Shown piece by piece: positions 6,345 through 59,000 of a stretch of 64,000 bases of DNA (positions are counted from its first letter, which is position 1; the number at the start of each line of letters is the position of its first letter). The translations under genes and the position numbers were made by a program. The stretch lies in assembly GCA_000004985.1 (NCBI GenBank), contig GG738904.1; one strand, 5' to 3'. The DNA is from Naegleria gruberi. Lineage: Eukaryota. The notes beneath the pieces were generated by a model that had not been told where the DNA came from, did not search any database, and worked only from the letters and a program-made list of their open reading frames with translations.

Positions 6345-9167
6345 TTACAAAGTGAGGACAACAGCATCAATTTCCTTACAGAATGTGTGGTAATCAATAT
6401 CGCCTCTTTCATCTTCGTAATGCTTTTGTAACACTCTGAGTTCCTTGTCATTCAAGTGGAACTTTAAGAAATCGAGAATAGAAGCAAATTGAGTTTTGGT
6501 AACACGAAGTTTTCTCAGCTTGTCATAGTCTTGGAAGTAGGCAGTTAAAATTTGTTGCATAACAGCAGCCTTAGTGGCAACCTTTTTAAGGATTGCATTC
6601 AATTCATTACCATCTACTTCGTTTGAGATTTCTGGAATATGAGATTTAAGAGGATAGCTTGGACGAGCTTGGAATGATTCTGCAGTCTTTGTTGGGAATT
6701 TTTCAAGTCTATTTTCAACAAAAGCTCTATCAACTTCTTCACAAAGTGATGTATAACTTATCAAATCTGGGTGAGCATCAACCTTGTAATAATCTTCCAA
6801 CAATTGAATTTCTTGTTCTGAAAGATTCAATTTAGCCATGCTAAGAGCAGTTCTAAACTTTGCCTTTGGAACGACATTGTGTCTCAATTTATCAAAATCA
6901 GCAAAGAATTCTTTCAATCTGGTTCTACTCTTAACAATATCAGACGTGGCCTTATAGATAACATTTGATATCTCTGTAGGAATTTGTTTTGGCACATCAG
7001 GGTTAATAAAGTTTTGAGAAACGGCCAACTCTAATTCCTTTACATAGACAGATTGATGGGTTCTGTCAACACGTTCATTCTTATCGACATCTTGAATAAA
7101 CTTGAAATAGTTTACATAGCCTGAAGTTGGTTCAAAATAGGCATTTTGAAGTAACCTGTAGTCTTCTTGGGTGAGGAAATTAAAAAGCTTATCAAGACAC
7201 TGTATAAACTGTGTTTCGCTTATTTTTCCTCTTCTTAACTTATCAAAATCTTCGAAATTTACTTTCATAGCAATACCTCTTGTCTTCACTGCATATTGAA
7301 GTTTGCCAAGTAACTCATCGAGCTTGTCCTCCATTGGTGTGTATGCTTTTTGTGGACCACGTTTTTGCATGGAATTTAAAGTAAAATCGAGAGGAGAAAC
7401 CAATTCTTTGGTTGGAACCTTTTCTAAATTCTTTTCAGTAATTACACTGTTAATTGTGTCACAAAACTTTCTATAGTTAACAAATCCTTTCTTCGTTGGA
7501 CTCTTAAATTCTGAAATGAGTTGTTCGTTCTCCTTATCTGTCATATCAATACCTCCCATATTTAAAGCACTTCTGAATTGTTTCTCTGTAATTTCATGAC
7601 TTCTAAGAGGGTCAAAATCTCTCATAAACTCTTCCAATCTTATTCTATTAACAAGGGACTTGAACGAAATATCCTCAAGTAATTCATCTAGCTCCTTTTC
7701 TCCCTTTGGACCTCTCTCCTTCTTTGGGAGATTACCAATAAGTTTAACATCATAGTCACGAGTATTAAAGTTACTATTTTGCAAAATTTCATCAACATCC
7801 TCGAGGAACATTTTGTAGTTTACATCTCCCTTACCAAGATCGTCATATTTTTCTTCAAGAATAGTATATTCATCTTGAGTTAAATTGATACCAGACATGT
7901 GAAGGGCTCTCTCGAATCTGGCCCTTGTAACGTGATCGGTGGAGTAGGTACCCTTCTTTGTTTTATCAAAATCTTGGAAGAATGGTTTCATGAAAACTCT
8001 TCTGTTGCTTACAATCTCACTGACCTTGTTAATAACATCGTTACATTTTTCTTCCTTTTCGCTCTCTAAATTCTTTCTATTAAGCTTGACAATATTGTTT
8101 TGTTGATGGAATTTCTTAGTTGGAAATTTTTCCAATCCCTTATCATTGAAAACAGAGTAAACATTATTCAAGAACTCTTGATATGATACTCTGGACTCGG
8201 AGTGATGATCTTCAGTTCTGTACTTTTCAGCCAACATGTCGAGCTGTGTTTGATTGAAAGCCATTTTGTGGAACTTTATGGCACCTAGTGTGGACATGAA
8301 TTGAGCTTTAGTGATAAAGCCAGTTCTTAATCTGTCAAAATCACGGAAAGATTCATCCAATTTAATTCTATATTTGATCAAAGCCTTTTTGATTTCCTTT
8401 TCAATTTCATCGACTTGTTCCTCAATTGAAGGGGTTGCTCTTTCGAATCTATAATCAGGATAGTCATCTATTTTAATTTCATTTTCAATTTCTTCATGGA
8501 ATCGGAGATAATTGATATCCCCTTTTTCATCTACATATCTATCAAGAATCAAGTGCAATTCTTCAGCATTCAGGTTTCTGAAAGGAATACATTGCAAAAA
8601 TTGAGATCTAGTAACAGCTCCATGATTAAGAGGATCAAAGTCCTTGAAGTAATTCTTAATAATATGGCCTTGAGTTTTGGCTTCCCATCTCAATTTTTCG
8701 TATAGAATATTTAATTCTTCAGTGGCTGAGAGTTGTGGTTTCTGTGATTTTAATAATTCTGTAGAGTTGAGAGTTTCCAATTTAGGATCTTTTTCCATTC
8801 CTTTGAGGGTAAATACTATTAAATGGTGTTATTAAAGATGTACATGTTATTGGATCAACATACCTTTATCGATTTCAGTAGCAAATTGAATATAATTCAC
8901 CTTATTGACGCTCGAATCAATAAACCTCGAAACAAGTTTATCAAAATCAGCATCCTTTAATTCCATTCCGAAAGAACTCAAACATCTTCTAAATTGAGGG
9001 ATTGATACAAATCCTGATCTCAATTTATCAAAGTCAATAAAAAACTCATTAATTCTTAGTCTTTTCTGCAAACACAATGTCCTGATAGTGTCCAACAATC
9101 CCTCTACACTAACATTCTTGCCTGATGAGAGTAACATTTTTTTTACTTTACGTAAATTAAAATTCAA
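6345..9167 (-). CDS. EF-hand-like tandem-repeat protein, about 920 aa, with 9 repeats of ~95 aa each carrying a degenerate Ca-binding loop D[FY]D.L..G.[IV][TS]..QF; 2 exons (9167..8847, 8798..6345)
   Basis: The repeats show recurring DFDKLR.G.V...QF ... VNY.KF..DVD motifs. ORFs 8847..9167 and 6345..8798 are joined by a 48-nt intron on the minus strand (GTATGTTG...TTTAATAG, plus coordinates 8799..8846). Confidence 0.7.
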
Positions 9168-9170
9168 AAC

Positions 9171-9182
9171 TTTTGGCGGGAA
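9171..9182 (+). promoter_or_regulatory. E2F-like site TTTTGGCGGGAA immediately upstream of the EF-hand repeat gene start (9167, minus strand)
   Basis: A canonical E2F consensus (TTTSGCGS). It is a GC-rich island in a >80% AT context. Confidence 0.4.
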
Positions 9183-9252
9183 CGAGTAATACAGTTATCG
9201 TTACGTTGATATCAAACCCCATCAACCTAATTTTAGTAATTTAAATTTGTTA

Positions 9253-10589: not shown

Positions 10590-13500
10590 ATGTCATCATA
10601 TTGTGCAATCAACAAAGAACGAAAAAAACTCAACCATCCATCACTTATTCGGTGGATAAAGGAAGAAAAGCGAATCTCATCAAAAAAACAAAATCAACAA
10701 CAATTTGTGGAGGAAATTGCTGATGAGGACGGTGTTTGCAGGAAATGCTTTCCTGATGGAATGGTAAATGAATCAGTTCAACAACAACAAGAAGAGGATG
10801 ATGATAATCGTAAAGTTAGATTTACAGAACACAATTCAGAGGATGCCCACAATACTCTTTCGGATTTGACAAACTCTGAAGCAGTAAACGCAAAGACAGA
10901 GCTTCACAAGAAAGTAATTTTCATGCACCATCAACAAAACAGGAGAAATGTTATTGATAAAGCTGAACAAACATCACTAGTGAGTGAAGATGAATTTGGA
11001 AAATTGTCTGATGAAAATTTGTTTGGAAAGGTACACTATCTTCTGTCCTCTATCAAATCTAATAGAGTGGAAACCAATGTGACGCCAACCAAAATTACAA
11101 ACATGACCCTAGACGATGATGAGCCAAGACCTAGTAATTTAAATATTTCCCCTTCTTCCTTATTCTGTGGATATCCTTCCAATGCAGACGATCAGGCACC
11201 ATTACAAAACACTAGCCGAGAGACACCATCTTTTGAAAATGAATTATTTCATAACTATTCACTCCCCAAACAAACAGTATCACCCAATATTTCTAACTTA
11301 ACTTTGGCAGATGCCTCTAGGCAAATTCAATCCATGTACAATCACATTACATCTGTATACGGATCAGAACCATTAAATCAAAGACAAATAATATTCGAGA
11401 AAACACTAAATATTGGAATAACCAGTAACAATGAAAATGATACGGTTCATGACTTGAACTACATTAAGGATAAAGTAAAAAAATTACGAAGCAAAAGACT
11501 TCAAGAAATCAAAAGAAATTTGGAATTTGAAAGGGTAGAATTAATGAAAAATCCAAAAATAGGAGATCTTAAAAAGCGAATTAGTGACCTTAAAAGAAAA
11601 ATAGAAAAAGAATACGAGAAGGATGAACTTTTCAGAAAACAAAGACTGAAGGAAACAAATAGACTAAAACTTGTGAAGAATACTCCAAAAGCTGAAGAGA
11701 AGCTTAAAATGTTTTTAAATGCCCTTAATGCTAATTATTCCAATACTTGCTATCAAGTAACTATTTATGAGGGAGAAATATCGACCTGTCTGGCCAAACT
11801 GTTTTTAATTTATTTAAAAATTGAGAAAGAAATACAAAAATCTAGGGATATATTGCTGACAAAATTGAATGATGAAATGTTGGAAAACTGTGCTAGGAAT
11901 ACTTTTTACGCCTTCAAAAACTTTACTAAAAAGCAACAAGATTTGAGGCAACAACAACAAAGATTTGACAACTACATAACTCATAGAAGAAAAGTAAGCC
12001 TCTTTGCTAAATGGAAAGAAAGTACAAAATCTTCTGTTACAGAGAAGGAAAAGGATGAGGTAGCTATGATTCATTACTACAATAACCTCCAACGTAAGGC
12101 TTTCAATAGTATAGCTTTCGTCTTGAATAGTATGATTCTTAAACGGTGTGCAAAGGAGCTTTCTTTTATGTGGAGGGATAGGCAGATTCTTGGAAAGGGG
12201 TTCTTTGGTTGGAGGCATCAATCTGAAAAAACAAAGTATTTGAAACAAGGTCTCATGAGGTTTGCTGTTTCAGATTCCTTTGATGAGTTGGACAGGTTCA
12301 AATCTGAATATGAGATTGAGTCCTACATGTCTTACAAAATACGTCTCAATTTCAGAACCAAAATAACCAAGCACTTGATTCAACTTTATAGAGAAAAGAA
12401 ATCCCTAGTTTCTAAATTCGAGCACACTCCAAAACTTAGATACATTGAATACTTTACCAAAAAACCAATTGATCTGAGTACTATTTACAAAATTGAAGAA
12501 TACGATCAAAGATTTAAGCACTTTAACTATTTGAAAAAGCACGACAGCAGACCAGTTTGGGATGGTCCACCAGAGGAGCAGTACGAACCACCTCTCTACT
12601 CAAAATCTTCTTTTCAAAAAGCATCAATTCCAAACCTTACTGAACAAGTATATGATATCAGACTCAAAAAGAAAATATTTCAACAGTGGAGTGAAAAAGC
12701 GTGTGATAAGATACTTAAAAACAGAGCGGACCAATTCTATAGTGACGTGACAAAGCGAAAGGTCTTGTACGTACTAAGAGAAAATAGAGATGATATTTAC
12801 GAAAAGAGTCTGCAAATACAGGACAATTCAAATGCTACAATGATTGTTAAATACTTCAACAAGTGGAGAGAAACCACAGAACTAGTCAGCCATGAAAAAG
12901 ATAGTATTGCCTCAGAATACTACAATATAACATTAGCAAGAAAGGCATTCCAAGCTTTGAAAACAACTTGTCTTGTAGATTACAATCCTCATTTGAATGA
13001 TCTATGTAAGCAATGGCTTGTCAAATCAAAGGAGCGTTATTTCAAACGTTGGAAGTTGATGTTGTTCTTGAGAAAAAGTGAAGAAAAGTTTGAACTGGCA
13101 GTTGCAGAACAATATCAAATGACTTTAAAGTTCAAACTGTTAACAGCTTGGAGAGAAAAAGCAAAAAAGAGACAACTGTTAAGAAAAGTTCTCACTGACG
13201 GAGCCAACAGAATGAAGGCCAAAACCACTGTTTTAGAAAATAAGAAATCTTTAGCCAAATATGTTCTTAAACAATTGAAAAAGAATAAGGAAGTCAAGAT
13301 CTCTAGGAAAAATCAATACTTCATGTTTATCAAATCTAAGAAATTTTATGATGATGCTCTCAAGCAAAAATTCTTCCAGTTGTGGAAAATCAAACAAGCC
13401 ATTGGAGAAGAACAAAAGAAATTGGAACAGTCACAGGAGGAGAAAGAAAAGACAGCTATTGCACTCAATCACTATAATCAAGTGATAAAGAAGAAAATAA

Positions 13501-14393
13501 TCAAATCATGGAGAGAGTATACCCTTGAAACAAACTTTGTTGATATATTTATTTTGAGAAAGGCTTTTGAAAATTGGAGAATATTCGCTGCTAAATCAAC
13601 CGAGGAACCAAAGCACAAATTTAAAAAAAACATTTTTCAAAGATGGAAAGCTGCACTCAGAGAAAAGAATGAAATGAGCTCGTTAAATAGTCTTGCTGAA
13701 AGGTTCCACGAAAGAAAACTGGCTCAGAAATCAATGGGGTCCATCAAGGAATACATTGTCCAACAAAGAATAGAACATGTTCAATTGATAAGAGCTAATC
13801 AATATTACAAAGAATCTCTGATGAGGAAAGTTTTAATAGGACTATTAATCAATGTAAATACCATACGAGATAAGAGGCGAAAGAGAGAAAAGGCTGACTT
13901 GTTCTATCACAAGAAATTAGTTCAATCATCACTAGAATCACCACTCTCGCTCGATAGATTCTTGAATGCGAGACCAAACTCACCATTCTTTTTTGCCAAG
14001 ACTGTGAATATTGTTTATTACAAGCTTCTCATTAAGGGAATCGATTCTTGGACATTTTTTGTAAAGAAGGAAAAGGAGAAACGACTTATGCTAGCCAAGG
14101 CAGTCCACGCCAATGCATCAAATCTAGTAGCAAAGTGCTTTAATTTGTGGCGAATCAAATCAAAACTACAATCTCACAAACATCCCAAATTTATAACCAA
14201 ATCCAATATCACTAATTCAAAAATTGTTCAGAGCAATATATCACCAGCCCTTAGTACAAACATTGTTTCTCCAATTCTTCATTCAAGTTTGACACCACAG
14301 GAGAGGAAAATTCTCATTCATCATCACCACTATCTGATTGCCACTGATTCTGATGATGATGATATTGTAGATTATCTAAATATTATTGAATAA
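10590..14393 (+). CDS. Long Lys/Glu-rich coiled-coil protein with repeated F/L-x-x-W-K/R motifs resembling Sfi1 centrin-binding repeats; candidate basal-body/centrosome protein
   Basis: A single 1267-aa ORF. At least 12 W-centred repeats spaced ~20-40 aa apart (FAKWKES, SFMWRDR, FQQWSEK, FNKWRET, FKRWKLM, LTAWREK, FQLWKIK, IKSWREY, FENWRIF, FQRWKAA, FNLWRIK). The N-terminus is acidic and Gln-rich. Confidence 0.55.
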   Translation: MSSYCAINKERKKLNHPSLIRWIKEEKRISSKKQNQQQFVEEIADEDGVCRKCFPDGMVNESVQQQQEEDDDNRKVRFTEHNSEDAHNTLSDLTNSEAVNAKTELHKKVIFMHHQQNRRNVIDKAEQTSLVSEDEFGKLSDENLFGKVHYLLSSIKSNRVETNVTPTKITNMTLDDDEPRPSNLNISPSSLFCGYPSNADDQAPLQNTSRETPSFENELFHNYSLPKQTVSPNISNLTLADASRQIQSMYNHITSVYGSEPLNQRQIIFEKTLNIGITSNNENDTVHDLNYIKDKVKKLRSKRLQEIKRNLEFERVELMKNPKIGDLKKRISDLKRKIEKEYEKDELFRKQRLKETNRLKLVKNTPKAEEKLKMFLNALNANYSNTCYQVTIYEGEISTCLAKLFLIYLKIEKEIQKSRDILLTKLNDEMLENCARNTFYAFKNFTKKQQDLRQQQQRFDNYITHRRKVSLFAKWKESTKSSVTEKEKDEVAMIHYYNNLQRKAFNSIAFVLNSMILKRCAKELSFMWRDRQILGKGFFGWRHQSEKTKYLKQGLMRFAVSDSFDELDRFKSEYEIESYMSYKIRLNFRTKITKHLIQLYREKKSLVSKFEHTPKLRYIEYFTKKPIDLSTIYKIEEYDQRFKHFNYLKKHDSRPVWDGPPEEQYEPPLYSKSSFQKASIPNLTEQVYDIRLKKKIFQQWSEKACDKILKNRADQFYSDVTKRKVLYVLRENRDDIYEKSLQIQDNSNATMIVKYFNKWRETTELVSHEKDSIASEYYNITLARKAFQALKTTCLVDYNPHLNDLCKQWLVKSKERYFKRWKLMLFLRKSEEKFELAVAEQYQMTLKFKLLTAWREKAKKRQLLRKVLTDGANRMKAKTTVLENKKSLAKYVLKQLKKNKEVKISRKNQYFMFIKSKKFYDDALKQKFFQLWKIKQAIGEEQKKLEQSQEEKEKTAIALNHYNQVIKKKIIKSWREYTLETNFVDIFILRKAFENWRIFAAKSTEEPKHKFKKNIFQRWKAALREKNEMSSLNSLAERFHERKLAQKSMGSIKEYIVQQRIEHVQLIRANQYYKESLMRKVLIGLLINVNTIRDKRRKREKADLFYHKKLVQSSLESPLSLDRFLNARPNSPFFFAKTVNIVYYKLLIKGIDSWTFFVKKEKEKRLMLAKAVHANASNLVAKCFNLWRIKSKLQSHKHPKFITKSNITNSKIVQSNISPALSTNIVSPILHSSLTPQERKILIHHHHYLIATDSDDDDIVDYLNIIE

Positions 14394-14471: not shown

Positions 14472-15416
14472 ATGGAACAAAACGAACTTGCCTTTCATTC
14501 TCAATTTCTCTCATTAAACGGATATTGTTTGAATCTGGAAGAGAAGACTGCCCTTCAAAGCAGTTTGCTTATTCTCCAAGAAAATAACCATTTCCATACT
14601 GTACAATTCTGGGGAAAGATTCAAGGTGTAGAACAAGATTATCATATTGCCGAAGGATATCGTGGATCAATGATGGATGAAAGAATAAGATTTTACTCGA
14701 TCGATGGAGGAATTAGTTGGAATCAAATGACTTTTGACTTGACTGAATATGAGGTTTCCTGCATAGAATCAATCCGAACACTGTTCATGGGTATCCCAAC
14801 TCACACCTATTTATTCCCAAAACCAAAGGAAGAGTCTTCCGAAGAAGTCACTGACAAACAAGAAGTTCCAGTTGAGCCAAAGGAACCTAAGGATGATGAT
14901 GAGGATAATGAAGACAAAAATGATGAAAAAGCTGATGATGAAAAGAAGACAAAACCAAAGGAAGAGTTATTCACTATAACTGAAGAAAAGAGATTAACAT
15001 GGGCTGTAAAAATGATTGACCAAGACGGAAGTGTTGTACCAAGGGGTGCTTTTGTTGTCAAGAAGGATGACGAGCAGGTAATTGTAAAAAATCAAACATT
15101 CTTTGGAATGGATAAGTATCAAGCATCAAAGCTCTATAACTTTGTCCACCTCAGAACACCAATCCACAAAACATGGGAAAATATAGTTGCTCAACAATAT
15201 ATTGACAAGTCTCTTGATTTTGCTGATCCAGTTGATGATGACATACCATACGGTTGTTGGAGCGTCCAATATGAGGAAATTATTAATACTGTAGTTGGAA
15301 GAAGTCTTTTGTGGCCTGGCTACGTCTTTTATCACAAAATTCAAACCCCATTCTATGGAGGTTTCTATATTGGAAATGGTTTGAAGAATGTTGACCTTTG
15401 TTTTATGTTACCTTAG
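14472..15416 (+). CDS. RSPH9: Radial spoke head protein 9 homolog (axonemal)
   Basis: The N-terminal region ...HFHTVQFWGKIQGVEQDYHIAEGY matches the RSPH9 block (VLFWGRILGL.ADYYIAQG). Length and architecture fit, with an acidic low-complexity insert of about 60 aa. Confidence 0.75.
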   Translation: MEQNELAFHSQFLSLNGYCLNLEEKTALQSSLLILQENNHFHTVQFWGKIQGVEQDYHIAEGYRGSMMDERIRFYSIDGGISWNQMTFDLTEYEVSCIESIRTLFMGIPTHTYLFPKPKEESSEEVTDKQEVPVEPKEPKDDDEDNEDKNDEKADDEKKTKPKEELFTITEEKRLTWAVKMIDQDGSVVPRGAFVVKKDDEQVIVKNQTFFGMDKYQASKLYNFVHLRTPIHKTWENIVAQQYIDKSLDFADPVDDDIPYGCWSVQYEEIINTVVGRSLLWPGYVFYHKIQTPFYGGFYIGNGLKNVDLCFMLP

Positions 15417-15610
15417 TTCTGTAATAAATGTATAATTTGATTAGAAAGAGGAACGATAAAAATTATATTTTAACTACATTGTCACATACTGACTTGGTTA
15501 ATAAATTACCCCCCAAATATTCCATTATTGGAAATATCATGTTTAATTTAAAATAAAAATAACAAAAAATAAATTAATTAATTAATTAAAAAAATGTAAT
15601 AATAAGCAAA

Positions 15611-16747
15611 TTAACAAAACAAAAACTCAACATCCAAATAGAGCACATTACTCATCATGATTCGTTGATATTTACAATTAGCTGATCCAAGAATCAATCC
15701 TGAAACAAAATCCAACTCTTCCAATGTTGAGGGAAGATAGAGTACTCTTCCACTTCTCGTAAATCTGGCACATCGTCCACTTCTCAATCGACTTTTAGTC
15801 TCATCACACACCACATCAAAATGTACAATACAATTACACCAAGGAACATCAATTCCTAACCAATCCTCTTCAGTTCCAATGAGGTGTATTGTTGACCGAG
15901 TGAAGGAGTGAAATCTCTCTTTTAAAACATCATATTGTTGTGGAGCAATTTGGAGAGTTGGATAAATCTCCTTCAGGGAATTGAATGATTGAGCTACTCT
16001 GTTATGTGAATTGCAGAAAAAGATGCAAAAATCGGAGATATTGAAGAGGGACTGTTTCAACAAGTCGAGTTTCTGATTTGGTTTTGGACAATAGACAAAT
16101 GTCTCAATAATTAATTCATTCAATTCCTTTCTACTTTGTTCTATTGTTGCATTTTTCAAATGATTATCATGAATATAACATTCAGGAGGAGGCATTTCAC
16201 ATCCAGTACAGATTATTCTGGTTTTATCTGGTAATTGTTTGAAAATTGATTTGATACACTTCCTACAATCAGATCCAAATTCCAACATTAAATTCATTTC
16301 ATCAACAGCTAAAATATTCAAATTAGAAACATCAATATTATGATGTAGAGCTAATTGTGGAGTGGTCACTAAAATTCTTGTTTGATCTGTTGGACACATG
16401 GAAATTTCAGTGACCTTTCTATTATTTGCACAATATTCAGAAATATAATTCAGAATGTTAAATATATACATTGCTAAATATTCTGTTGGAGCAAGAATTA
16501 ATCCTTGCAGTGAATGTTTAGATTGAAAATCAATTTCCATGACCACTTTAATCACCAAACCAATTGTCTTGCCAGATCCGGAATTCCACTGTTGAATGAT
16601 TGCCTTTTCAAGTTTGGAATGGAGAATGTATTGTTGAGCTGATGACATTTCCTCCAATCCAAAACTATAAATCCCTCTCAACAGTTCTTCCGACACGCCA
16701 ACAACATCATAAAAGTGGGGTGAAGACATTTTTTTTAACAAATTCAA
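15611..16747 (-). CDS. eIF4A-like DEAD-box helicase paralog with degenerate catalytic motifs (likely pseudo-helicase)
   Basis: Q-motif and motif I are well conserved against eIF4A (SEELLRGIYSFGLEEMSSAQQ; NSGSGKT; LAPTEYLA). DEAD is replaced by DEMN, SAT by CTG, and the HRIGR motif is altered to RLRSGRCARFTRSGR. Confidence 0.7.
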   Translation of the reverse strand: MNLLKKMSSPHFYDVVGVSEELLRGIYSFGLEEMSSAQQYILHSKLEKAIIQQWNSGSGKTIGLVIKVVMEIDFQSKHSLQGLILAPTEYLAMYIFNILNYISEYCANNRKVTEISMCPTDQTRILVTTPQLALHHNIDVSNLNILAVDEMNLMLEFGSDCRKCIKSIFKQLPDKTRIICTGCEMPPPECYIHDNHLKNATIEQSRKELNELIIETFVYCPKPNQKLDLLKQSLFNISDFCIFFCNSHNRVAQSFNSLKEIYPTLQIAPQQYDVLKERFHSFTRSTIHLIGTEEDWLGIDVPWCNCIVHFDVVCDETKSRLRSGRCARFTRSGRVLYLPSTLEELDFVSGLILGSANCKYQRIMMSNVLYLDVEFLFC

Positions 16748-16846
16748 ATGTCAAACTTTGTAAACACGCAACTTGACACATTAGAGACTGGGAGGTTAGG
16801 TAGATATGATATTGTCTTATCAATTTTTGAAACTAATCTCCATTGA

Positions 16847-18883
16847 TTACAAAAAAGGATTGTCTTGGTTAAGGTAGTAATAAGTATCAAAAATAGTAGA
16901 TTGAAAGTGATCTGAGGGTAAACATGGAGGACCAATTGAGCTCCAACTGTAATAATGTTCATGCTCTCCAGAATCACAATAGAAACTCATTGACTTGGTA
17001 GCTCTCATAAATGTGAGTAGGTCTTGTTTCCTCTCCTCTGTTGCATAATTGAAAGCAGACCTCCTTGTAGAGACAGCAAGGCAAATCATTTGTTCATCAT
17101 TTCTAATTTCCTCTGGTGCATATTGTAACAATGTTCCATCGTACCTTAATGCAAATTTGTAAAATTCTCTATTGTTAAGATAGTAATCATCATTGTCAAC
17201 CTCATTAGTTTGTGTAATTGTGTCAGATATTAGGCCTAAATGGCCAACCTCAGAAAAGCTCTCATCTCCATCATAATCCAAAAACTCTGGCTCGTTTGGA
17301 TAATAACTAGAGCAAGGATCCACTAGTAATCTTCTGATAACTTGGACATATCTGTTAAATAATTGGTTAGGGAATGTAATATCTATAATATCAATGCCAC
17401 CTGCTAAAATATTACAAATATCCTTATCATTTAACAGTTCTAGATTTGCAAATTGGATAGCCCTAATATTCCTTCGTATAGCCACTAATACCACCTCTTT
17501 ATCCTTCTTCAATTCATCAGATGTATATTTCAAACTCATTGGAGATGTTTGTAAAGCTCTCATTACAATTTCCTTGTTGGCCGTAATTTTAGGCGAGCAA
17601 AATCTCAATAAATAACCACATCGACAAACTAGTCGTTCTCTTTCCAATTCATCATCACTACTCTTGTTGAACAAATCAATAAACTCATCTCTATTCCAAA
17701 TATTCTCATATCTTGAAGGTTCTTGTTCAATACTTTGTTTTTTCTGGGTAGTATTAAACTCTCTCAGGGCTGGATGTGATTGCACATGATCTGGTAACCA
17801 TGAGAAAATATCCGCATTATGTTTTAAAACATCTAATATCAGTTTGATATCTCCTCCAAATAGTGTAGTATCATTCAAAATGAAATTACTTAATTTGAAC
17901 ATTGGATGAATAGTAGAATCCCAAACTTTTCCTCCAATCTTCAATTGTTGAATTGTTATATCCCTATCTTGTTCAAACTCAACTGGTATTCTATACTTTT
18001 GAAATACTGATAAACCAACAATGCTTACATTTTGTAAGCACTTTAGGATTAGATCTTTTGTAATAAGATCTTTTTTGAGATGGATCCAATCCAATCCTCT
18101 TTCCACACAACTAATCACAAGATCCTCTTGGGTTATGAACTTTTTAAATGCATACAATGCCTTTGGGAATTTTGAAATGATTCTTTTCATGAACGGTTCA
18201 CTTTCCAAAAGACGATTCGAAACAGAATGAAGCAACACGTAGTAAATATCAGAGGGTTTGTAGATTCTCTCAACCACACTCAAACAAAATGCTTCATCAT
18301 CCAATGCTTCAGGTGATACTTGAGAAGATAAAGAACAATTAGCCATTAGACAATGTGCAATAATTTCAGGATCTTTCCTAAATACAGAACTATTCACCAT
18401 GAAACTAGCAATCGAATCAGCATTAGATTTAACAGCTGCAAGAGCTATTTCTCTATCCACCTTGAACTTTTCAGGTAAAAAAGCAAATTCACTTCCACAA
18501 TTCCTAACACATTCCAATAAAACTTGTCTATCATCATAATCGAAAGGTAAATTCCTAATTATTCCTGGTTTTCCAAATTTAGCCAATTTAAGAAGTACTA
18601 ATCGGAAGGGCACACAAGAATTAATTGTATTCCCGTGAAAACTATTGATAGTTGCCAATTTTTCTTCCTTTAATTTATCCAAAAACCACAACAAAGCCCT
18701 CTCCAACTCAAATTGCCTGTCGTTTGCTTGTAACATTCGCCTTCCGAGCTTTTCCTTTAGTAATTGGGCATGAAAATTATTCTTGCTGAGAACAGTTTCC
18801 TTTGAAAATGGTAACACAACAACGTCTATATCTTGAAGTAATTGAAACATTTTTTTTAAAAACAGGGCAATAAAGTTCATCAT
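16847..18883 (-). CDS. Hypothetical protein with DUF4116-like repeats
   Basis: Repeated segments of type REIALAAVKSNADSIASF / KEVVLVAIRRNIRAIQFAN / EQMICLAVSTRRSAFNYAT / KEIVMRALQTSPMSLKYTS. The gene lies in tandem with the upstream helicase-like gene. Confidence 0.45.
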   Translation of the reverse strand: MMNFIALFLKKMFQLLQDIDVVVLPFSKETVLSKNNFHAQLLKEKLGRRMLQANDRQFELERALLWFLDKLKEEKLATINSFHGNTINSCVPFRLVLLKLAKFGKPGIIRNLPFDYDDRQVLLECVRNCGSEFAFLPEKFKVDREIALAAVKSNADSIASFMVNSSVFRKDPEIIAHCLMANCSLSSQVSPEALDDEAFCLSVVERIYKPSDIYYVLLHSVSNRLLESEPFMKRIISKFPKALYAFKKFITQEDLVISCVERGLDWIHLKKDLITKDLILKCLQNVSIVGLSVFQKYRIPVEFEQDRDITIQQLKIGGKVWDSTIHPMFKLSNFILNDTTLFGGDIKLILDVLKHNADIFSWLPDHVQSHPALREFNTTQKKQSIEQEPSRYENIWNRDEFIDLFNKSSDDELERERLVCRCGYLLRFCSPKITANKEIVMRALQTSPMSLKYTSDELKKDKEVVLVAIRRNIRAIQFANLELLNDKDICNILAGGIDIIDITFPNQLFNRYVQVIRRLLVDPCSSYYPNEPEFLDYDGDESFSEVGHLGLISDTITQTNEVDNDDYYLNNREFYKFALRYDGTLLQYAPEEIRNDEQMICLAVSTRRSAFNYATEERKQDLLTFMRATKSMSFYCDSGEHEHYYSWSSIGPPCLPSDHFQSTIFDTYYYLNQDNPFL

Positions 18884-19392: not shown

Positions 19393-20793
19393 TCATTTGC
19401 TGTTTTTATTTTTGTGTTCCTTAAATATAGTGAACAACTGAGGTAGTTCTGTATATGCATATTTCATAATTGGACGGTGCCAGGTGAAAAGTGATTCATC
19501 ATTTGTGGATTGACCAAGAATATTTTGCTCAACAAGTTTTGAACAAATTTTCCTATGTTGAGCTGTTGATGGAAAAAATGAATTATTTCCAGCAATGAGA
19601 TCCAAGACGTCAACTATTTCACCTCCTTCGTTATCATAGATTATCCCTATTATGTTTGCTAATTCTATAGCTTCTGTTCGAATCATTCCATCAACAACTT
19701 TCTTAATGTCTTCAGCTGGTACTTGAATGTGACCATTAACAATATCGGAAATAATTTCATTATGAGGTTTTGATTTCAGAGAAGGGTGATGATCTTGCAT
19801 AATGGGGATCAATTCTTTAAGTACACTATAAATCTGGCCAAAGTGGCCTCCTAATTTCTTGATATCATCATTTCTCAGGAATGGATATTGCTCTAATTCA
19901 GTTTGGGTGGTGTAAGAAAACGTGTACTTCTTCAGTCTAGATGTGTGTCCAGATAATTTCCTTAAATCTGTGAAGGTGGAAAAGTTGCTAGAGACATGGA
20001 CACCAGTGGCCAATTGCTCCTCAACGAATTGAAGTAAGTTACCGGCTATTATTTTACAATCGGGGTCGTTGGCTATATAGTCACTTACAACAATAATAGA
20101 AACAGGAGTACCATAGTTAGCTTCCTTCTTTAGTTGTTGCAAAATGTTTTTCAGGGCAACCATTATTCTGGCAATTGGAACGTCAGATTCGTCTGTTCTT
20201 CTTTGGCTGATCCCAAGTGCAAGAAGAATGTTTTGGTATGGCATATTCGCTCTCAATGGAATGTATATTACATTTCTTCTATTTTCCAGTGCTTTCTCAA
20301 CAGACATTGATTTTCCAGAATTAGATGGACCACTGATATATGCCAACTGATTAACGCAGTCGTATGAAAACATTGCACCAAGTACTTCTGATCCTGCTTT
20401 AGGCAACAATTTCATACCATTAATCATTGGTGTAGTTGGTATGAATGGTTGTGCGAGCTTTGATCTAATTTCCTTCTCAAGAGGCAAATACTCGTTGTTT
20501 TGATTATCTTCATGAATACCTGTAAGAATGTTATAAGTTTGATAAGCACTCAAGACGGAAAAGATAATGGCCAGAGAACCTGACCAAGTGATCCATATGT
20601 TTGTGAATTTCTTCCAATTGCTTTCTTTTCCTTCTTCGTTGGACCCTTGGTCAAAGTTTCGCAAGTACCGTGTCATATGAAAATGTTTGCTAGGTGTAGG
20701 TTGTTTAAAGGTGAAAAATTGTGGTGCACAACACTTGCAATTGTTGACGAATGTTACAAGTCTCACTAGTCTTAATCTGCCCAATATTTTCAT
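19393..20793 (-). CDS. P-loop NTPase with an Arg-rich N-terminal presequence-like segment and one TM helix (possible mitochondrial membrane ATPase); family unclear
   Basis: Walker A ISGPSNSGKSM and a Walker-B-like IIVVSD. An N-terminal TM helix WITWSGSLAIIFSVLSAYQTY follows MKILGRLRLVRL. The ORF is single and intact. Confidence 0.55.
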   Translation of the reverse strand: MKILGRLRLVRLVTFVNNCKCCAPQFFTFKQPTPSKHFHMTRYLRNFDQGSNEEGKESNWKKFTNIWITWSGSLAIIFSVLSAYQTYNILTGIHEDNQNNEYLPLEKEIRSKLAQPFIPTTPMINGMKLLPKAGSEVLGAMFSYDCVNQLAYISGPSNSGKSMSVEKALENRRNVIYIPLRANMPYQNILLALGISQRRTDESDVPIARIMVALKNILQQLKKEANYGTPVSIIVVSDYIANDPDCKIIAGNLLQFVEEQLATGVHVSSNFSTFTDLRKLSGHTSRLKKYTFSYTTQTELEQYPFLRNDDIKKLGGHFGQIYSVLKELIPIMQDHHPSLKSKPHNEIISDIVNGHIQVPAEDIKKVVDGMIRTEAIELANIIGIIYDNEGGEIVDVLDLIAGNNSFFPSTAQHRKICSKLVEQNILGQSTNDESLFTWHRPIMKYAYTELPQLFTIFKEHKNKNSK

Positions 20794-20950: not shown

Positions 20951-21346
20951 ATATTCTTTACATTAATGTCCTCTTACAATATTGATTTAGTTATAAGCGC
21001 ATTGTAATCTCAACCATCTAACCAAAGTTTCTCAAATACGAACAAGCTACGTAATTCTTCGAACGCAAATTTTACAATAAATTACAGTTCTTTACAAAGA
21101 CCTAAGGAGGTTCCCAAAATGCATGATTCTCATATGTTCCTTCTCCTGTACTGTCAGAAATTAAATTGACAGTACCCAAACAAACACAGCACAATCCAGA
21201 GTAACGATAACCAATATCCATATTTATCCAATATCTGCCCGTTTCTCCTCAAACAACAACCAGTTCTAAAACACATTTAAGGAAGCATGCAACGAATCTC
21301 TCAAAAACACAACAAAAAAAAATCCCTCAACAACAAATTGAAAGAA

Positions 21347-22123
21347 ATGAATCCATTCGCTGCTTCTCTCCTTGTTGCATGTTTATTCATGCTGGCCATG
21401 ACTGTTCAAGTTTTTGCCATCAAAATTTCCAAACCAAATGCAGGTCAAAGAACATTGATCACAGATTCTCTCTCAATTGATATTGAGGGCAATCAGAATG
21501 TTCCCAAGTTTGGTTATTCGTTTGCTAATGATAGCAGAATTCAAGGATTTAAGGTTCAATTTGCTAGAGCTTCTCAGACCGATTCTGATCACAATGAAAT
21601 TCCTTCAACTAATATTGCATTGGCTAGTTTGAATTATGATTTTAGTGAATTTGTTACCAATTCTGATAATTCTGTTGATTTTAATATTACATCGAGTGGT
21701 GGAAATCCAACTTTCCAATTTCGTATTCATGTCAATTCCACCTCTAAATCATTCAAGTTTGACACTGTCATTTCTGGAGTAACTTGGAATAATAAGGCTG
21801 CTTACTTGTCATTGTGTTATAAGGTGTTAGATAGAGATTCTGGTAATGGAATCAATGCTGCTAATTCAACTTCAACTCGTGCTTCATTTGGAAAGGGATA
21901 TTTCGATATTGAGCCACGTGCTTTGGCAATCAATGGAACAAGTGTCAAGGCAGGTTTGAGAAATTCTGGTAATACCATTTGTGTTGAATATGAAAAGTGG
22001 GATGGCACTTTGGTGCATGATCCAACTCTTGGATACTCAACAAGTGTTTCAGTTTCTTTTGCAAGTGCCAATTCATTTTCCTTGCTTGTAGTTCTTGTTG
22101 CTTTAATTGCATCACTTTGGTAA
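21347..22123 (+). CDS. Predicted GPI-anchored surface protein (signal peptide plus C-terminal hydrophobic GPI signal)
   Basis: The ORF runs from 21287, but the likely start is the internal Met at 21347 (MNPFAASLLVACLFMLAMTVQVFA). It has a Ser/Asn-rich ectodomain with N-glycosylation sequons and a C-terminal SFSLLVVLVALIASLW tail. Confidence 0.5.
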   Translation: MNPFAASLLVACLFMLAMTVQVFAIKISKPNAGQRTLITDSLSIDIEGNQNVPKFGYSFANDSRIQGFKVQFARASQTDSDHNEIPSTNIALASLNYDFSEFVTNSDNSVDFNITSSGGNPTFQFRIHVNSTSKSFKFDTVISGVTWNNKAAYLSLCYKVLDRDSGNGINAANSTSTRASFGKGYFDIEPRALAINGTSVKAGLRNSGNTICVEYEKWDGTLVHDPTLGYSTSVSVSFASANSFSLLVVLVALIASLW

Positions 22124-22215
22124 TTTAAATTCACAAATATATTGCAGTCTTCATTTGTGAACTCAGCTGGAAGACAATCTCAAAATTAAACATTTAGTTT
22201 TTTCAGTTCAAAAAA

Positions 22216-23166
22216 ATGTCTCATCACGAAGCTCCTGGGGTGGTATTATCACTTTTGGATTTTAATTTATTAAATAATCATCAAAATAATCAATTAATGA
22301 AATTACTCAAGGATAAACTTCGGAAACCATCTAACAAACCCTTCTCATGTAAATTTGAATTTTGTGGACCGATATATAAATTTGAGGAATTACATTTTGG
22401 AGGCTTTATGGAAATATCTTATCGATATAAACGTTTGATTGCTGTTTCCGAGTCGCAAGTGTTTATATTTGATCAGAAAAGTAGAGAGCTAATTAATATA
22501 TTTGAATTGAGTGATGCTGTTGCTGCTGTGGTTGATGATGAATGTGATTATATTTATGTTGTTGGAGAAAGAGAGGATGGTTTTTATGTCAAAAAGTTTG
22601 ATTTGGGATTGTTTATTCAAAGTAAAAAACAACCAGAGGTTGCATTAATTTGGGATACTAGTCCAAAATCAATTAAATCACCTTTTGGAATAACTCTTTA
22701 CAATGGAAAATCAAAGAAATATCTCATCATTTTAGATAGTACCTCATCGGATTTGATAATCCTTAATTGTTCAAATGGAGGTGAGCTAAATGATTTTAAA
22801 TTATCCCTAGCAACAACAACTGCAAACTCAATTACAATGAGAACCAAAAATGAGATGGTTGTTGGAGCAAAACAAATTGAAATTTACAACATTGATGAAA
22901 GTTCAGGAATTCCAAGTTTAAGGTTTTTATATTCTGTCCCAAATGTTAAAGGATTTTTCTATTCAGTGACTTTTTGTCCTGCTAGCCAATATATTATCAC
23001 TGATTCAGAAAATGATAGTTTTTCTGTAATCAATAGAGATACATTACAAGTTGTAAAGTACTACAAAGAAACTGAGTTATTGGGCGATTTATTTGGAATG
23101 TGTTATGATAAGATTAATGGTATATTGTATTGTTGCTGTAGGATGGGATTTTATTATTATAAGTGA
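22216..23166 (+). CDS. Hypothetical protein (316 aa)
   Basis: Intact ORF with sense codon usage. Possibly a beta-propeller-like fold. No motif recognised. Confidence 0.4.
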   Translation: MSHHEAPGVVLSLLDFNLLNNHQNNQLMKLLKDKLRKPSNKPFSCKFEFCGPIYKFEELHFGGFMEISYRYKRLIAVSESQVFIFDQKSRELINIFELSDAVAAVVDDECDYIYVVGEREDGFYVKKFDLGLFIQSKKQPEVALIWDTSPKSIKSPFGITLYNGKSKKYLIILDSTSSDLIILNCSNGGELNDFKLSLATTTANSITMRTKNEMVVGAKQIEIYNIDESSGIPSLRFLYSVPNVKGFFYSVTFCPASQYIITDSENDSFSVINRDTLQVVKYYKETELLGDLFGMCYDKINGILYCCCRMGFYYYK

Positions 23167-26605: not shown

Positions 26606-28138
26606 ATGTTCCTCCAAAAAAACTATAAAAGAAGAATGGTTAATGTTTCACCAATTCCAAGACAATTCTCAGAGCATGTTGTTGTGATTCTGATAGATTT
26701 GCCTCGTTTATCAAATGATGCTCTAGTAAAGGACGAATTTACTTGCAAGTACCTCATGGAGAAACTCGAACGAAAGCTCTCTACCAAGCAATCTCTCTCA
26801 CGACTCATTGAAAAACAAATTGAAAAGCTTCAACAATTTAACATGTACATGGCACGAGATAGGAAAATGGTCTTTTCGAATATTCATTCTAAATATTTGC
26901 AAATTATCGGCAGCGAAATGTTAAAGAGGAGAAATTCGCAATTGGTAAAGCAAGTTGAAGAATCTGAGAGAAAATGTCTAAACGTGATGGGAATTCCATT
27001 CTTTCAAAAATTGGACAAGTGGTTCCAAACCTTTGATTGGTCCAAGGCTATTCACTTATTAGAAACTCTTTCTCATTACTTTAGTCCATTTGCATTAGAT
27101 CTTTCCAATAACTATCTATTTGCCAAATTGTTATTATCCAGCACTGTGAACAGTTATTTTTTGCAATTCTTACAGATTAGTAAGAGACACATGAGAAATG
27201 ATAAGGTGAATTATTATCGTTTCTCCCTGTATTTCATTCATGAAGAACATGAGAGTGTTCTTGAGGAATGTTTCAATTCGAAACTTGAAAAGGAACATTT
27301 GGCTCGTAGAAATGAATTTCCACTCAAAGTGATTATTTTAATTGGTAAACACACTTTGGAATGGACAGAGAATGGTTTCATCCAAGTTGAAGAGCTGAAT
27401 TACAGTAGTGAATTGGAAACTTGTTGTTTCCGTTCGTCTTTCCTAGTTTGTAGAAAGAGTGAGCAAATTGAGTATTACATGAAAAAGTTGATAGATTTTA
27501 ATTGTAAATGGAATGCCAGCATGTGTTATAATGATGAACAGTGTAACACTGGACACTATGCAAAGAGTTTATTGAGCTATTTGAATATTTCACTTTCGAA
27601 TAGAGATTCCAATACTTTATTAGATTGCATATGTGATAATAGACCTGTTCCATTTGAATTTAATATTCCAGTTGATTTAGTAATGGTTTCACCAATCAAA
27701 AAGGCATTGTCTAATTATTTAAACAGTATTGGATATGAGCCTAAATGGGTTCGTCCCATTTCGAATTGTATTTCACAAGAAACAAGTCACGAAACTTTCT
27801 TCTTAAAGCTAGATAGGACCTGGGACGAAATTGAAACTTTCTATCACTTTTTTCTTCGTTATCTAAGTGTTGATTGTCCATTCTTAGATGTTTCAGAAGA
27901 GTTTAGTTTATTTCTTCTAGCTTTATTAGAAAGTAATCGTGAAATTGTGAGAGGTGAATCCTTTGCGTCACTTGTAAACTTTTCCAAAAAGCAAATTCTT
28001 GAATTATTAAGAAGAAGGAGAAATCAAAGTTATCATTCACAACTTTACAATTTCAGCGATTTCAATTCAATGAAGAAATCAATCATTGAAAAAGATGTTC
28101 ACGTATTGAAAGATATTTCCGCATTCTTAGAAGAATAA
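26606..28138 (+). CDS. Hypothetical protein (510 aa)
   Basis: Long intact ORF with no recognised domain. Confidence 0.45.
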   Translation: MFLQKNYKRRMVNVSPIPRQFSEHVVVILIDLPRLSNDALVKDEFTCKYLMEKLERKLSTKQSLSRLIEKQIEKLQQFNMYMARDRKMVFSNIHSKYLQIIGSEMLKRRNSQLVKQVEESERKCLNVMGIPFFQKLDKWFQTFDWSKAIHLLETLSHYFSPFALDLSNNYLFAKLLLSSTVNSYFLQFLQISKRHMRNDKVNYYRFSLYFIHEEHESVLEECFNSKLEKEHLARRNEFPLKVIILIGKHTLEWTENGFIQVEELNYSSELETCCFRSSFLVCRKSEQIEYYMKKLIDFNCKWNASMCYNDEQCNTGHYAKSLLSYLNISLSNRDSNTLLDCICDNRPVPFEFNIPVDLVMVSPIKKALSNYLNSIGYEPKWVRPISNCISQETSHETFFLKLDRTWDEIETFYHFFLRYLSVDCPFLDVSEEFSLFLLALLESNREIVRGESFASLVNFSKKQILELLRRRRNQSYHSQLYNFSDFNSMKKSIIEKDVHVLKDISAFLEE

Positions 28139-56051: not shown

Positions 56052-59000
56052 ATGCAAGACGATAAATCATCAATTCCCGAAGGTGTCGTTGCTGATGAAG
56101 AAACAAATCCAACTATTCCAGGACATGAATCCACCATTGAACAAAATCCTTCTTCAACGGAGGAGAGCAAAATGACCTATCCAACACTCCACAAAAGTTT
56201 GAAGAAATCTTTCAGTCAAATTGTGTCTTGTGGAGGAAGTTTTGTTTGTTCTGATAAGTTTGATGGTGTGACACTTCCTGGATTGGAATTACTTGTTTCT
56301 GCTGCTCAAGATTCTGATAAGAAATATAAAGCAATGCCCTTTCCGATTGTTTATAAAGAGCAAGCTGATGAAATTATTAGAATTGCAAAGAAATCACCTT
56401 ATGGAAAGGGAGAGGAAACAATTTATGATGACAATGTGAGAAATTCCTATGAATTGGAACCAAATCAATTTAGAATTACAAATACAATGTGGCAAAAAGA
56501 ATTAAATCAATTATTGGAAACAAAAATTAAAAGTGGACTGGGAATTGACAAGTACAAGAATGTGGAATGTAAATTGTACAAATTACTATTGTATGAAAAA
56601 GGAGGACATTTTGAATATCACAAAGATTCTGAAAAAGAATGTAAACAAACATGCACATTGGTTATTATTTTACCATCCATCTTTGAAGGAGGAGAATTCA
56701 AAATCAAACACAATGATTATGAAATGGAAATTGCCACAACAAATGATTATGCAACTGAGTGAGTATTATAGTATGAACAATTTATTGAAAATTAATTTCA
56801 AATCTCCCATTATTGAATTTAATCATGATGAATTCTTGGCAGTTGTCATTTCATTTCATTTTACTCTGATTGTGATCATGCTGTTATGCCACTCACAAGT
56901 GGATACAGAACTTGCCTTATCTATAATATTATTGTAACAACTCATCAAGAAAATCAGCAATTATCCATTGCAGATAATCATGTACATTCTGAAAATGTAA
57001 GAGAACAATTATCAGAGTGGTTGAAAACTGATTTGTCCAAGAAACCATTAGTTTATTTGCTGGAACACGAATATACAACAGAAAGTTTAGTTTTTGGATG
57101 TGAAAATTTGAAAGGAAATGATTACAAAATTTATTCTGCACTCAAAGCATCCAAATTGCCATTGCTCTTGTTTCCATCTTTCTTTACAAAACGTGTTAAT
57201 GAAGGGTTTAGTGATGATGATTTCTTTGAAGAGGGAGTGTTTTTAACCATCTCTAAAATGTACTTTGATGAAAAGGCAATACTTTCCGATGTCTCTGTTT
57301 CGCCATCTCAGGTTTTTTCATTTCCAGGAAAAGATATGAAAGATATGAAACTAACAAAGTCAACTGAACATCAAACAGGTAAGTACGAGAGAATTATTTA
57401 GATAGTTAATCATTCTAACAGGAAATTATGGAACTCAATCATCTAAATGGTATCAAAAAACATGCTTGATCATTTCTTCTAATCAATTTAGTTCAATTGT
57501 GGAGCTAGGATTTAATTTTGGTATGAACTACTTTGAATTTCTTTCTAAAGCTGAAAGTGAGCAGATTAACGAATTTTATGAATCATTTACAAAGGAAGAA
57601 TGGAAATTACCATACAGACATACTATTAGCAAGCAAGAGATGTTCGTAATGACATTAATTAAAACTGGCAAGAAAGATTTGACCAAAAAATTCCTTGAGG
57701 AAGAGTGTAGCTCGGCCTCAATCACAGCAAAAGCTTTAAAACAATGTTTGAATGTATTTGAAGACCAAGAGTTTAAACAGATTGTTTTTCAATATTGTAT
57801 TGATAGTTTAACAAATCTTGAACACGGACATAAGCTTGATATTGATGAATACTTGGAAGCACTAGAGCCGTTCGTTACCCCTAAAATGGTAAACTATATT
57901 GAAACACAGCTGGTCAAATCAGTCGATTCAATCCGTAATCTAAACTCATTCTACTTATTTTGTGAAAAAAAGCGAGACAAATTTAGTTATACATTTAATA
58001 AGGGTTAGTTTTCTACATTTATTTCAATGCTCACCCTATTTAGATTTATTTTTACCGATATTTAGATCTCTTTATAGCCAATTAAAACACTGCAAAGCTC
58101 AATATTTTCCTCTTTGTGACACTTATATGTGTGAGGAATTTGTAAAAGGTACAATAGAATTCTACTTTAACAATGATTATAATAGAGGTTTACAACTCAT
58201 TCAAAAGTATGGATACAATACATTTGATCCAAATAAGGTTTTTTCAGTTTTGAACCCATCCCATTATTTTGAAAATTACAAAAAAGATATTGAAGACAAT
58301 GAGTTGAAATTGTTCTATTCTGGATTTAGAAAATACATGATTGAAAAACGATTACTTGATAACCGATCTGAGAGAGAAGTAGTTCTCAAACATTTACTCG
58401 AAAAAGAAGAGTATGAAACTCTCTTGCATACTTTGAAAACCTATAATAAGAATGTCATTAGTAATATTTATATTTTGGATAGATTTCTAAAGAATTTCAA
58501 ACCAATAGTTGATAATACTATATTGCAACAATGGATTAATATAACGCAAATGTGTATCTCCTCTATTAAGGGAGGCTTGTCTAGAAGCTATATTGAAATA
58601 TTAACCTACAAACTTCCTCACACTTTGCCATGCACTTGTGAGCTGTGTGCATCTGTACAAAAGTTTTTAAAGAGTTCTAAAGACTCCTTTTCCAAAATTG
58701 GAGTTTCTAAAACAAGCTATGATCACGTGAAAAGTTATTTGGAAAAATTAGAACGTTTGAGTCAATATTGGTCAAATGAAAAATTAACGATTAACAAGAG
58801 TGGTTATTCTAGCAAATATAGTGAAAATATTATGAGATATGCTTTAGAAAACCTCAATGAATTATTACAATTTTTGATCCACCACCAAACTGATAAAGAC
58901 TCTAGACCTCAATTTAGCTTTACAAGAATTACAGCATCTAGCCCAGCTGGAGAAGAGAGTGTAAAAAGAGAAGCAGAACGGGTAGAGAAAGAGAAGAAAG

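Follow-up and report, generated by a model that had tools for sequence, protein, structure and literature searches.

Within a 64,000-nucleotide stretch of nuclear DNA from Naegleria gruberi (contig GG738904.1 of assembly GCA_000004985.1; hereafter the window, with positions counted from its first letter), we have characterized the gene NAEGRDRAFT_73388 (73388), which encodes a relative of the minimal DEAD-box helicase eIF4A, whose motif pattern points to a protein with a preserved ATP site that would have lost its canonical contacts with RNA. The gene is found at positions 15611..16729 of the minus strand as a complete, intronless coding sequence of 372 amino acids terminated by TAA (15613-15611). 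As listed open reading frame it extends over 15611..16747 (minus strand) and opens on a TTG, an artefact of mechanical calling. The true start is provided by the ATG at 16729. This codon is preceded by a run of A and backed by the N-termini of paralogous proteins (MSDSTSFEDL..., MNSFDNL...), and 73388 aligns over its whole length to the paralogs P0002 and P0003. The product of this frame is 100% identical to the deposited protein XP_002671641 (NAEGRDRAFT_73388), a 'predicted protein' of only 286 residues that begins at Met87. The public model, which is corrected by the present analysis, needs to be extended by the N-terminal part encoded at 16472-16729 (minus strand), with both the paralogs and a gene call from a metagenome backing the full 372-residue frame.

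Motifs of the 73388 protein and integrity of its gene

The motifs were compared in six members of the family to which 73388 belongs (73388, P0002, P0003, P0005, P0110 and P0111). In the window they are located as follows:

16634..16660, minus strand: Q motif, G24-LEEMSSA-Q32; adenine-binding glutamine kept, Q32 invariant in the family, upstream aromatic F6/Y7
16565..16588, minus strand: motif I (Walker A), WNSGSGKT (residues 48-55); intact, with G51, G53, K54 and T55 invariant
16472..16489, minus strand: motif Ia, PTEYLA (residues 81-86); the RNA-phosphate arginine of PTRELA is replaced by Glu83
16352..16366, minus strand: motif Ic, TTPQL (residues 122-126), in place of (G)TPGR; glycine and arginine gone
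16292..16303, minus strand: motif II, D143-E144-M145-N146 (GAT GAA ATG AAT), in place of DEAD; same codons in the independent contig L001
16199..16207, minus strand: motif III position; SAT is exchanged for T175-G176-C177, of which the family shares only the central glycine
16007..16024, minus strand: motif IV, IFFCNS (residues 236-241); conserved, with F238 and C239 invariant
15848..15877, minus strand: motifs V/Va, GTEEDWLGID (residues 285-294); GID (ribose contact) kept, the arginine of ARGID replaced by leucine (W-L-G)
15749..15787, minus strand: motif VI, LRSGRCARFTRSG (residues 315-327); R316, G318-R319 and R322 kept, histidine replaced by leucine
15707..15739, minus strand: YLPSTLEELDF (residues 331-341), directly after motif VI; family-specific and almost invariant

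In DEAD-box proteins, ATP is contacted by motifs Q, I, II, Va and VI and RNA by motifs Ia, Ib, Ic, IV, IVa, V and Vb, with motif III being responsible for the communication between both sites (PMC3590237). The residues of the ATP site, comprising Q32, GxGKT, D143-E144, GID and the motif VI pattern xR(S/T)GRxxR, are retained in every full-length family member. An earlier interpretation of the locus (the sequence-only reading) had described 73388 as an eIF4A-derived and likely catalytically dead pseudo-helicase, with an eIF4A-like N-terminus and degenerate motifs II, III and VI. What it says about the Q motif and P-loop, where Q32 and GxGKT are kept, is borne out, as are the change of DEAD to DEMN (GAT GAA ATG AAT at 16303-16292) and the loss of SAT, which is TGC at the motif III position. 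Conversely, motif Ia, which had been regarded as almost eIF4A-like, keeps four of six letters in PTEYLA but carries a glutamate in place of the functionally important arginine, and motif VI is less degenerate than claimed, since LRSGRCAR preserves the Arg, Gly-Arg and Arg of HRxGRxGR, all three arginines included, and departs from it only in the histidine and one glycine.

The changes in the RNA-contacting motifs extend throughout the family. The arginine of motif Ia is replaced by glutamate or aspartate in five of the six members and by isoleucine in the remaining one, thus converting PTRELA to PT/N-E/D/I-x-L. The GG loop (motif Ib), which would be located upstream of motif Ic, is absent in all members, and (G)TPGR is found as TTPQL, TTPEL, TTPSI, TTPQK, STSSN or TTISA, with the glycine gone from all and the arginine from all but P0110, where it is conservatively replaced by lysine. 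Similarly, the arginine of the QxxR sequence in motif IVa is missing, the position being occupied by tyrosine or aspartate in 73388 and by histidine in Willaertia, or the segment being shortened. The arginine of ARGID is exchanged in the context of W-L/Y-G or F-I-G in all members except Willaertia, whereas G292 to D294 are kept. At motif III, the sequences TGC, TGL, VGS, TGT, FGS and FGK share the pattern x-G-x. Motif VI has everywhere lost its histidine but not its three arginines, with its second half being shortened in one paralog. DEMN itself, whose persistence in related species the sequence-only reading had left to be checked, is kept in part: all members share DEM but are divided at the fourth residue, with an aspartate in Willaertia, N. 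lovaniensis and the N. gruberi paralog 46148, and an asparagine in 73388 and the paralogs 62154 and 71451. Both residues are interconverted by single GAT/AAT transitions, and the ancestral box of the family was, as judged from this distribution, probably DEMD, a DExD box.

The consequences of such replacements can be gauged from mutagenesis of the yeast protein Prp28, which was guided by the structure of Vasa (PMC4227776). In Prp28, D341 and E342 of motif II and R527 and R530 of motif VI are essential (PMC4227776), and the equivalents of all four are present in 73388. Together with the Walker A Lys-Thr, the motif II Asp-Glu and the two motif VI arginines make the set of hydrolysis-essential residues complete (Prp28, PMC4227776), and a catalytically dead protein can thus not be deduced from the sequence. 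The arginines of motifs Ia, Ic and IVa touch three consecutive phosphates of the RNA, and their removal in Prp28 is lethal in R476A (IVa) and in the double mutant R264A-R320A (Ia and Ic), whereas R264E and R264D in motif Ia are each lethal alone, through charge repulsion (PMC4227776). It is this very glutamate or aspartate that is found at the motif Ia position of five of the six family members. In Vasa, the fourth residue of DEAD forms hydrogen bonds with the hydroxyls of motif III and the arginine of motif Va, and motif III touches the histidine of motif VI (PMC4227776). Every part of this coupling network, namely the fourth motif II residue, the SAT hydroxyls, the Va arginine and the VI histidine, is replaced in 73388.

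The family is also distinguished by its cysteines, which account for 2.8-4.3% of its residues compared to 0.7-1.8% in the eIF4A homologs that were compared. Three of them (C184, C214, C239) do not vary, and another two (C320, C352) are mostly conserved.

73388 is an intact gene under purifying selection. A frame of 372 codons would stay open by chance with a probability of about 4e-13 at the local base composition. The metagenome ERR1078381 (PRJEB11402) holds a Naegleria strain that is about 1.2% divergent from the window, and its contig L001 (equivalent to window positions 15536-18048) spans 73388 and part of the neighbouring gene, with contigs L002 and L003 originating from the same run. Among 1119 coding positions, 13 distinguish the two versions of 73388 (8 synonymous, 5 non-synonymous), and none of these is located in the codons of motif II. 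In this comparison of the window with one independent strain, which was carried out for 73388 alone among the paralogs, the proportions of synonymous and non-synonymous differences are 0.035 (pS) and 0.0056 (pN) by the Nei-Gojobori method, resulting in an omega, the ratio of non-synonymous to synonymous change (dN/dS), of 0.16. The synonymous excess has a binomial p of 0.0015 under neutrality, and the omega matches the value of 0.17 obtained for the neighbouring DUF4116 gene. The sequence-only reading had named an error at the DEAD codons, or close homologs with intact motifs that would imply a pseudogene, as findings that would overturn it. The first is ruled out by the identical codons in L001. 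With respect to the second, the family members share the motif changes, and a pseudogene is ruled out by the intact frame and dN/dS. The strain in the metagenome also carries paralog 46148 (P0109), with one amino-acid difference.

Fold, kinship and distribution of the family

73388 is a protein with the two-RecA-domain DEAD-box fold that is closest to eIF4A and eIF4A-III. Among Pfam domains, DEAD matches with 8e-16, and Helicase_C scores 21.6 bits, which is below its cut-off of 23.5 bits. When compared to all sequences of the PDB, the best matches of 73388 are eIF4A-III (3e-20), yeast eIF4A (2e-18) and human eIF4A-I (4e-18), followed by Dhh1 (5e-16) and Dbp5 (6e-11). Used on the same database, a profile of the family gives 164 bits for eIF4A-I, 158 for eIF4A-III, 151 for yeast eIF4A, 139 for Dbp5/DDX19, 137 for Dhh1/DDX6, 118 for Sub2 and 99 for UAP56. 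An AlphaFold2 model of 73388 has a predicted local distance difference test score (pLDDT) of 82 and a predicted template modelling score (pTM) of 0.77, and a Foldseek search with this model retrieves eIF4A-III in the exon junction complex (2hyi_C, 1e-22) and then eIF4A1 as top matches, with template modelling scores of 0.72-0.77 to RNA-bound eIF4A-III, eIF4A1, Dbp5, DbpA and Sub2. The eIF4A fold proposed in the sequence-only reading is thus supported, in the form of an eIF4A-like protein with two RecA domains, by PDB, AlphaFold2, Foldseek and profile comparisons, although 73388 is not the lone paralog that this reading implied but part of a family specific to Naegleria and Willaertia.

The family was defined by a word-indexed search combined with a profile search run exhaustively over 1.84 billion representatives, in which no member falls below 281 bits and the best-scoring protein outside the family reaches 196 bits. 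By these searches it is a small family that is confined to Naegleria and Willaertia. It comprises four genes in N. gruberi, which are located on four separate scaffolds (73388, 46148, 62154 and 71451, the last a partial model), one in N. lovaniensis (C9374_004346, P0111) and one or two in Willaertia magna (ABK040_013017, P0005, and a nearby fragment, 013027, P0130, on the same 476-kb contig). Identities amount to 47-59% among the N. gruberi paralogs and to 29-35% between species. In a neighbour-joining tree, the family is monophyletic with bootstraps of 100%, with Willaertia branching off before N. lovaniensis and the latter before the four N. gruberi paralogs, and since these paralogs group together (100%), the expansion has occurred in the N. 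gruberi lineage. A scan of metagenome contigs of the Joint Genome Institute (JGI) with the family profile found no member, its sole match being an ordinary bacterial DEAD/SAT helicase (L004), and a scan of the viral contigs in IMG/VR found no member either. Our literature searches have retrieved no paper in which one of the four locus tags of N. gruberi is mentioned and none for Naegleria in combination with eIF4A and rocaglate.

Two of the gene models outside N. gruberi have peculiarities. In C9374_004346, the family domain corresponds to the C-terminal approximately 430 residues of a model of 1132 amino acids, whose N-terminal approximately 700 residues resemble an unrelated secreted protein, and the model is probably a merger of two genes. 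The Willaertia fragment 013027, a sequence of 121 residues that is ten locus tags away from 013017, exactly repeats the C-terminal approximately 80 residues of the latter, beyond which its sequence fits the C-terminus of the family better (CKF...ML..N..Y.DIEI). This pattern points to a local duplication or to an incorrectly modelled 3' exon.

With respect to its origin, the family is 23-27% identical to eIF4A proteins, which are 44-71% identical among themselves, and its top non-family matches among the 1.8 billion representatives are eIF4As by sequence and source names. In the neighbour-joining tree, which is built from the named sequences that were retrievable and samples neither Dhh1, Dbp5, Sub2 and eIF4A-III nor the eIF4A and eIF4A-III of Naegleria, it forms a long branch within an eIF4A-like supergroup, apart from DDX18, DBP4 and prokaryotic DEAD-box proteins (84% bootstrap). 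Descent of this very rapidly evolving family from an eIF4A-type DEAD-box protein is the best-supported, though not proven, interpretation of these sequence comparisons.

The comparison with its closest relatives underlines what has been altered. The minimal DEAD-box helicase of translation initiation, eIF4A-I/II (Tif1/2), is the best match at the level of profiles (164 bits). It shares with the family the fold, the restriction to a minimal two-RecA core of about 370-400 residues devoid of extensions and the N-terminal signature LLRGIY-x-GxE...Q. Unlike eIF4A-I/II, the family has DEM[ND] in place of DEAD and xGx in place of SAT, it has lost the RNA-contacting arginines, the GG loop and the motif VI histidine, it has the high cysteine content noted above, and it is found in Naegleria and Willaertia only, with four copies in N. 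gruberi. The best match to a single sequence and to a structure (3e-20 and 2hyi_C at 1e-22) is provided by eIF4A-III (DDX48/Fal1), which in the exon junction complex exemplifies an eIF4A-type protein working as a locked clamp with nucleotide bound, instead of an unwinding enzyme. However, the canonical motifs of eIF4A-III are all present, and it clamps RNA via Ia, Ib, IV and V, contacts that are lost in the family. A third comparison concerns UAP56/Sub2, whose DECD box equally contains a residue other than alanine at the third position of a DExD motif II, but which scores lower with the family profile (99-118 bits). UAP56 and Sub2 retain SAT and the RNA-binding motifs.

Predicted function and alternative interpretations

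In light of the selective preservation of its motifs, we propose that 73388 may be a functional family member that acts as an ATP-binding switch or scaffold toward protein partners, possibly with slow ATP hydrolysis, and not as a helicase, a proposal in which our confidence and our doubt are about equal. The ATP contacts are invariant in a family whose members are otherwise only about 30-50% identical, whereas the canonical RNA contacts are gone, which argues that nucleotide binding would still be used and RNA clamping or unwinding would not. The anatomy of the sequence, its fold, the conservation throughout the family and purifying selection are shown by the analysis, and we infer ATP binding, a lack of canonical RNA binding and the existence of a protein partner. 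In the proposed mechanism, the preserved nucleotide pocket would allow the protein to bind ATP and possibly to hydrolyze it slowly. With the Ia arginine, the GG loop, the Gly-Arg of TPGR and the IVa arginine gone, RNA would neither be clamped nor unwound, and the hydrogen-bond network that joins the gamma-phosphate of ATP to RNA binding would be missing. The two RecA lobes would then open and close as a nucleotide-dependent switch or serve as a scaffold for protein partners. Unwinding has, on this evidence, probably been lost, and canonical binding of RNA appears unlikely. The suggestion of the sequence-only reading, that the protein binds RNA or partners without unwinding, is thus plausible with respect to unwinding, but its RNA-binding part is weakened by the absence of the three arginines that contact RNA phosphates.

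Several points weigh against the proposed switch. The invariant methionine that replaces the alanine of motif II could disturb the pocket, and since the ATPase of DEAD-box proteins normally requires an RNA-induced closure of the lobes, ATP may, if RNA is not bound, be held but not turned over. RNA could also be bound via a new surface, and structural constraint might partly explain the conservation of the ATP-site residues. Domain 2 is, judging from its Helicase_C score below the Pfam cut-off, strongly diverged, and the place of the family inside the eIF4A-like group is not settled by the tree.

Among the alternatives, the two that concern the status and the origin of the gene have the lowest probability. 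We find it barely credible that 73388 is a decaying duplicate or that DEMN reflects a sequencing or assembly error. The shortened 286-residue public annotation and the strong divergence from eIF4A, with identities of 23-27%, would fit such a scenario, but the 372-codon frame is unbroken, the motif II codons recur in an independent assembly, dN/dS is low (p = 0.0015) and equal to that of the neighbouring gene, and the motif pattern is kept in four paralogs and two further species. Similarly, we consider it very improbable that the family was acquired from the eIF4A gene of a giant virus instead of the eIF4A of the host, a scenario that would bear on its origin and not on its mechanism. This possibility is raised by P0008, which leads the non-family matches in the word-based searches (187 bits) and is a homolog of eIF4A whose motifs are canonical. 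Its gene is found at 8001-9197 on the giant-virus contigs L005 and L006, which contain a major capsid protein of nucleocytoplasmic large DNA viruses (NCLDV) and the RNA polymerase subunit Rpb1. A viral origin is in line with the sequence GSGKT, which is found in several family members and in two of the metagenome eIF4A homologs resembling P0008 (P0007, P0013), whereas the compared cellular eIF4As contain GTGKT. Yet the lead over cellular eIF4A is narrow (187 compared to 169 bits for eIF4A of Thecamonas) and may be accounted for by a common AT-rich composition. In the neighbour-joining tree, the family does not group with the viral clade and P0008 shows no specific grouping with the family, and with no support from the tree and no family member in IMG/VR, we have rejected a giant-virus origin.

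The alternatives that concern the mechanism deserve closer consideration. The family could still consist of RNA-dependent ATPases or helicases, in which DEMD or DEMN would function as a DExD box, comparable to the DECD of UAP56/Sub2, and RNA would be bound via substituted or new contacts. This we regard as unlikely, despite the intact catalytic Asp-Glu, Walker A and motif VI arginines, an ancestral DEMD that would be consistent with a DExD box and the tolerance of other DEAD-box proteins to comparable changes: in Prp28, D344A at the fourth DEAD residue and a double mutant of the motif III hydroxyls are benign in vivo (PMC4227776), and in Mss116 residual unwinding remains after mutation of SAT to AAA (PMC3590237). 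What argues against it is the binding of RNA, as all three arginines that would contact consecutive phosphates are missing, motif Ia is acidic in five of six members, in line with the lethality of R264E/D, R264A-R320A and R476A in Prp28 (PMC4227776), the GG loop is lost and so is, outside Willaertia, the Va arginine. At the other extreme, and close to the sequence-only reading, the protein could be a fully inert pseudo-helicase scaffold that neither binds nor hydrolyzes ATP and acts purely via protein or RNA binding, as Utp25 and MUT-15, an option to which we likewise assign a low probability. It would account for the non-canonical motif II, with its invariant bulky methionine at the alanine position, and for the loss of SAT and the motif VI histidine, and DEAD-box-derived pseudohelicases are known (PMC9539457; bioRxiv 10.64898/2026.09.04.749402). 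Against it stands the invariance of every ATP-contacting residue across genera at an overall identity of about 30-50%, a selective retention which would be hard to explain if nucleotide binding was irrelevant. Utp25/Def resembles the family in its DEAD-box fold with degenerate motifs and its presumed loss of helicase activity but shows the opposite pattern, as motif Ia and in part Q, IV, V and VI are kept and the DEAD sequence is absent (PMC9539457), whereas the family keeps its ATP motifs. An ATP-site loss as in Utp25-type pseudohelicases is not found in the family, whose ATP-site residues are all retained, and no specific homology of 73388 to Utp25 was detected, Pfam giving only DEAD and Helicase_C. 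The likeness to MUT-15 of C. elegans, a helicase-fold scaffold of the CPUG complex which licenses partner enzymes (bioRxiv 10.64898/2026.09.04.749402), is by description only, and this protein belongs to an unrelated lineage and context.

Returning to the ATP-binding switch, a specific version of this proposal, which we regard as rather improbable, would be that of an eIF4A descendant acting as ATP-gated decoy or regulator, which, having abandoned RNA, might nevertheless dock on partners of eIF4A (proteins with a MIF4G domain such as eIF4G) and thereby tune translation initiation in Naegleria. If this was the case, translation could be adjusted for example when amoebae turn into flagellates or cysts, the four-fold expansion seen in N. 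gruberi would be a sign of diversified control, and the family would define a new class of DEAD-box derivatives in which the ATP site is kept and the RNA site lost. It is usually the ATP site whose loss is described for degenerate DEAD-box proteins, as in the case of Utp25, and the family displays the reverse pattern, thus offering a natural experiment on the capabilities of a DEAD-box core deprived of RNA. Since the genus also includes the pathogen N. fowleri, and a family member is found in its relative N. lovaniensis, a lineage-specific protein with predicted ATP binding could be of practical interest.

Neighbouring genes

The window is composed of DNA with a G+C content of 30-38% and contains closely packed eukaryotic genes. 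No functional link to the eIF4A-like 73388 is evident for the two genes flanking it:

14472-15416, plus strand: radial-spoke-head-like protein (flagellar component), convergent with 73388 at a distance of 194 bp
16847-18883, minus strand: protein in which DUF4116 domains are repeated, on the same strand and 117 bp upstream of 73388

The window also contains long open reading frames of 278 to 1267 residues with zero Pfam matches, at 10590-14393 (plus strand), 19393-20793 (minus strand), 21287-23166 (plus strand), 26606-28138 (plus strand) and 57962-59728 (plus strand), which probably encode lineage-specific proteins of Naegleria.

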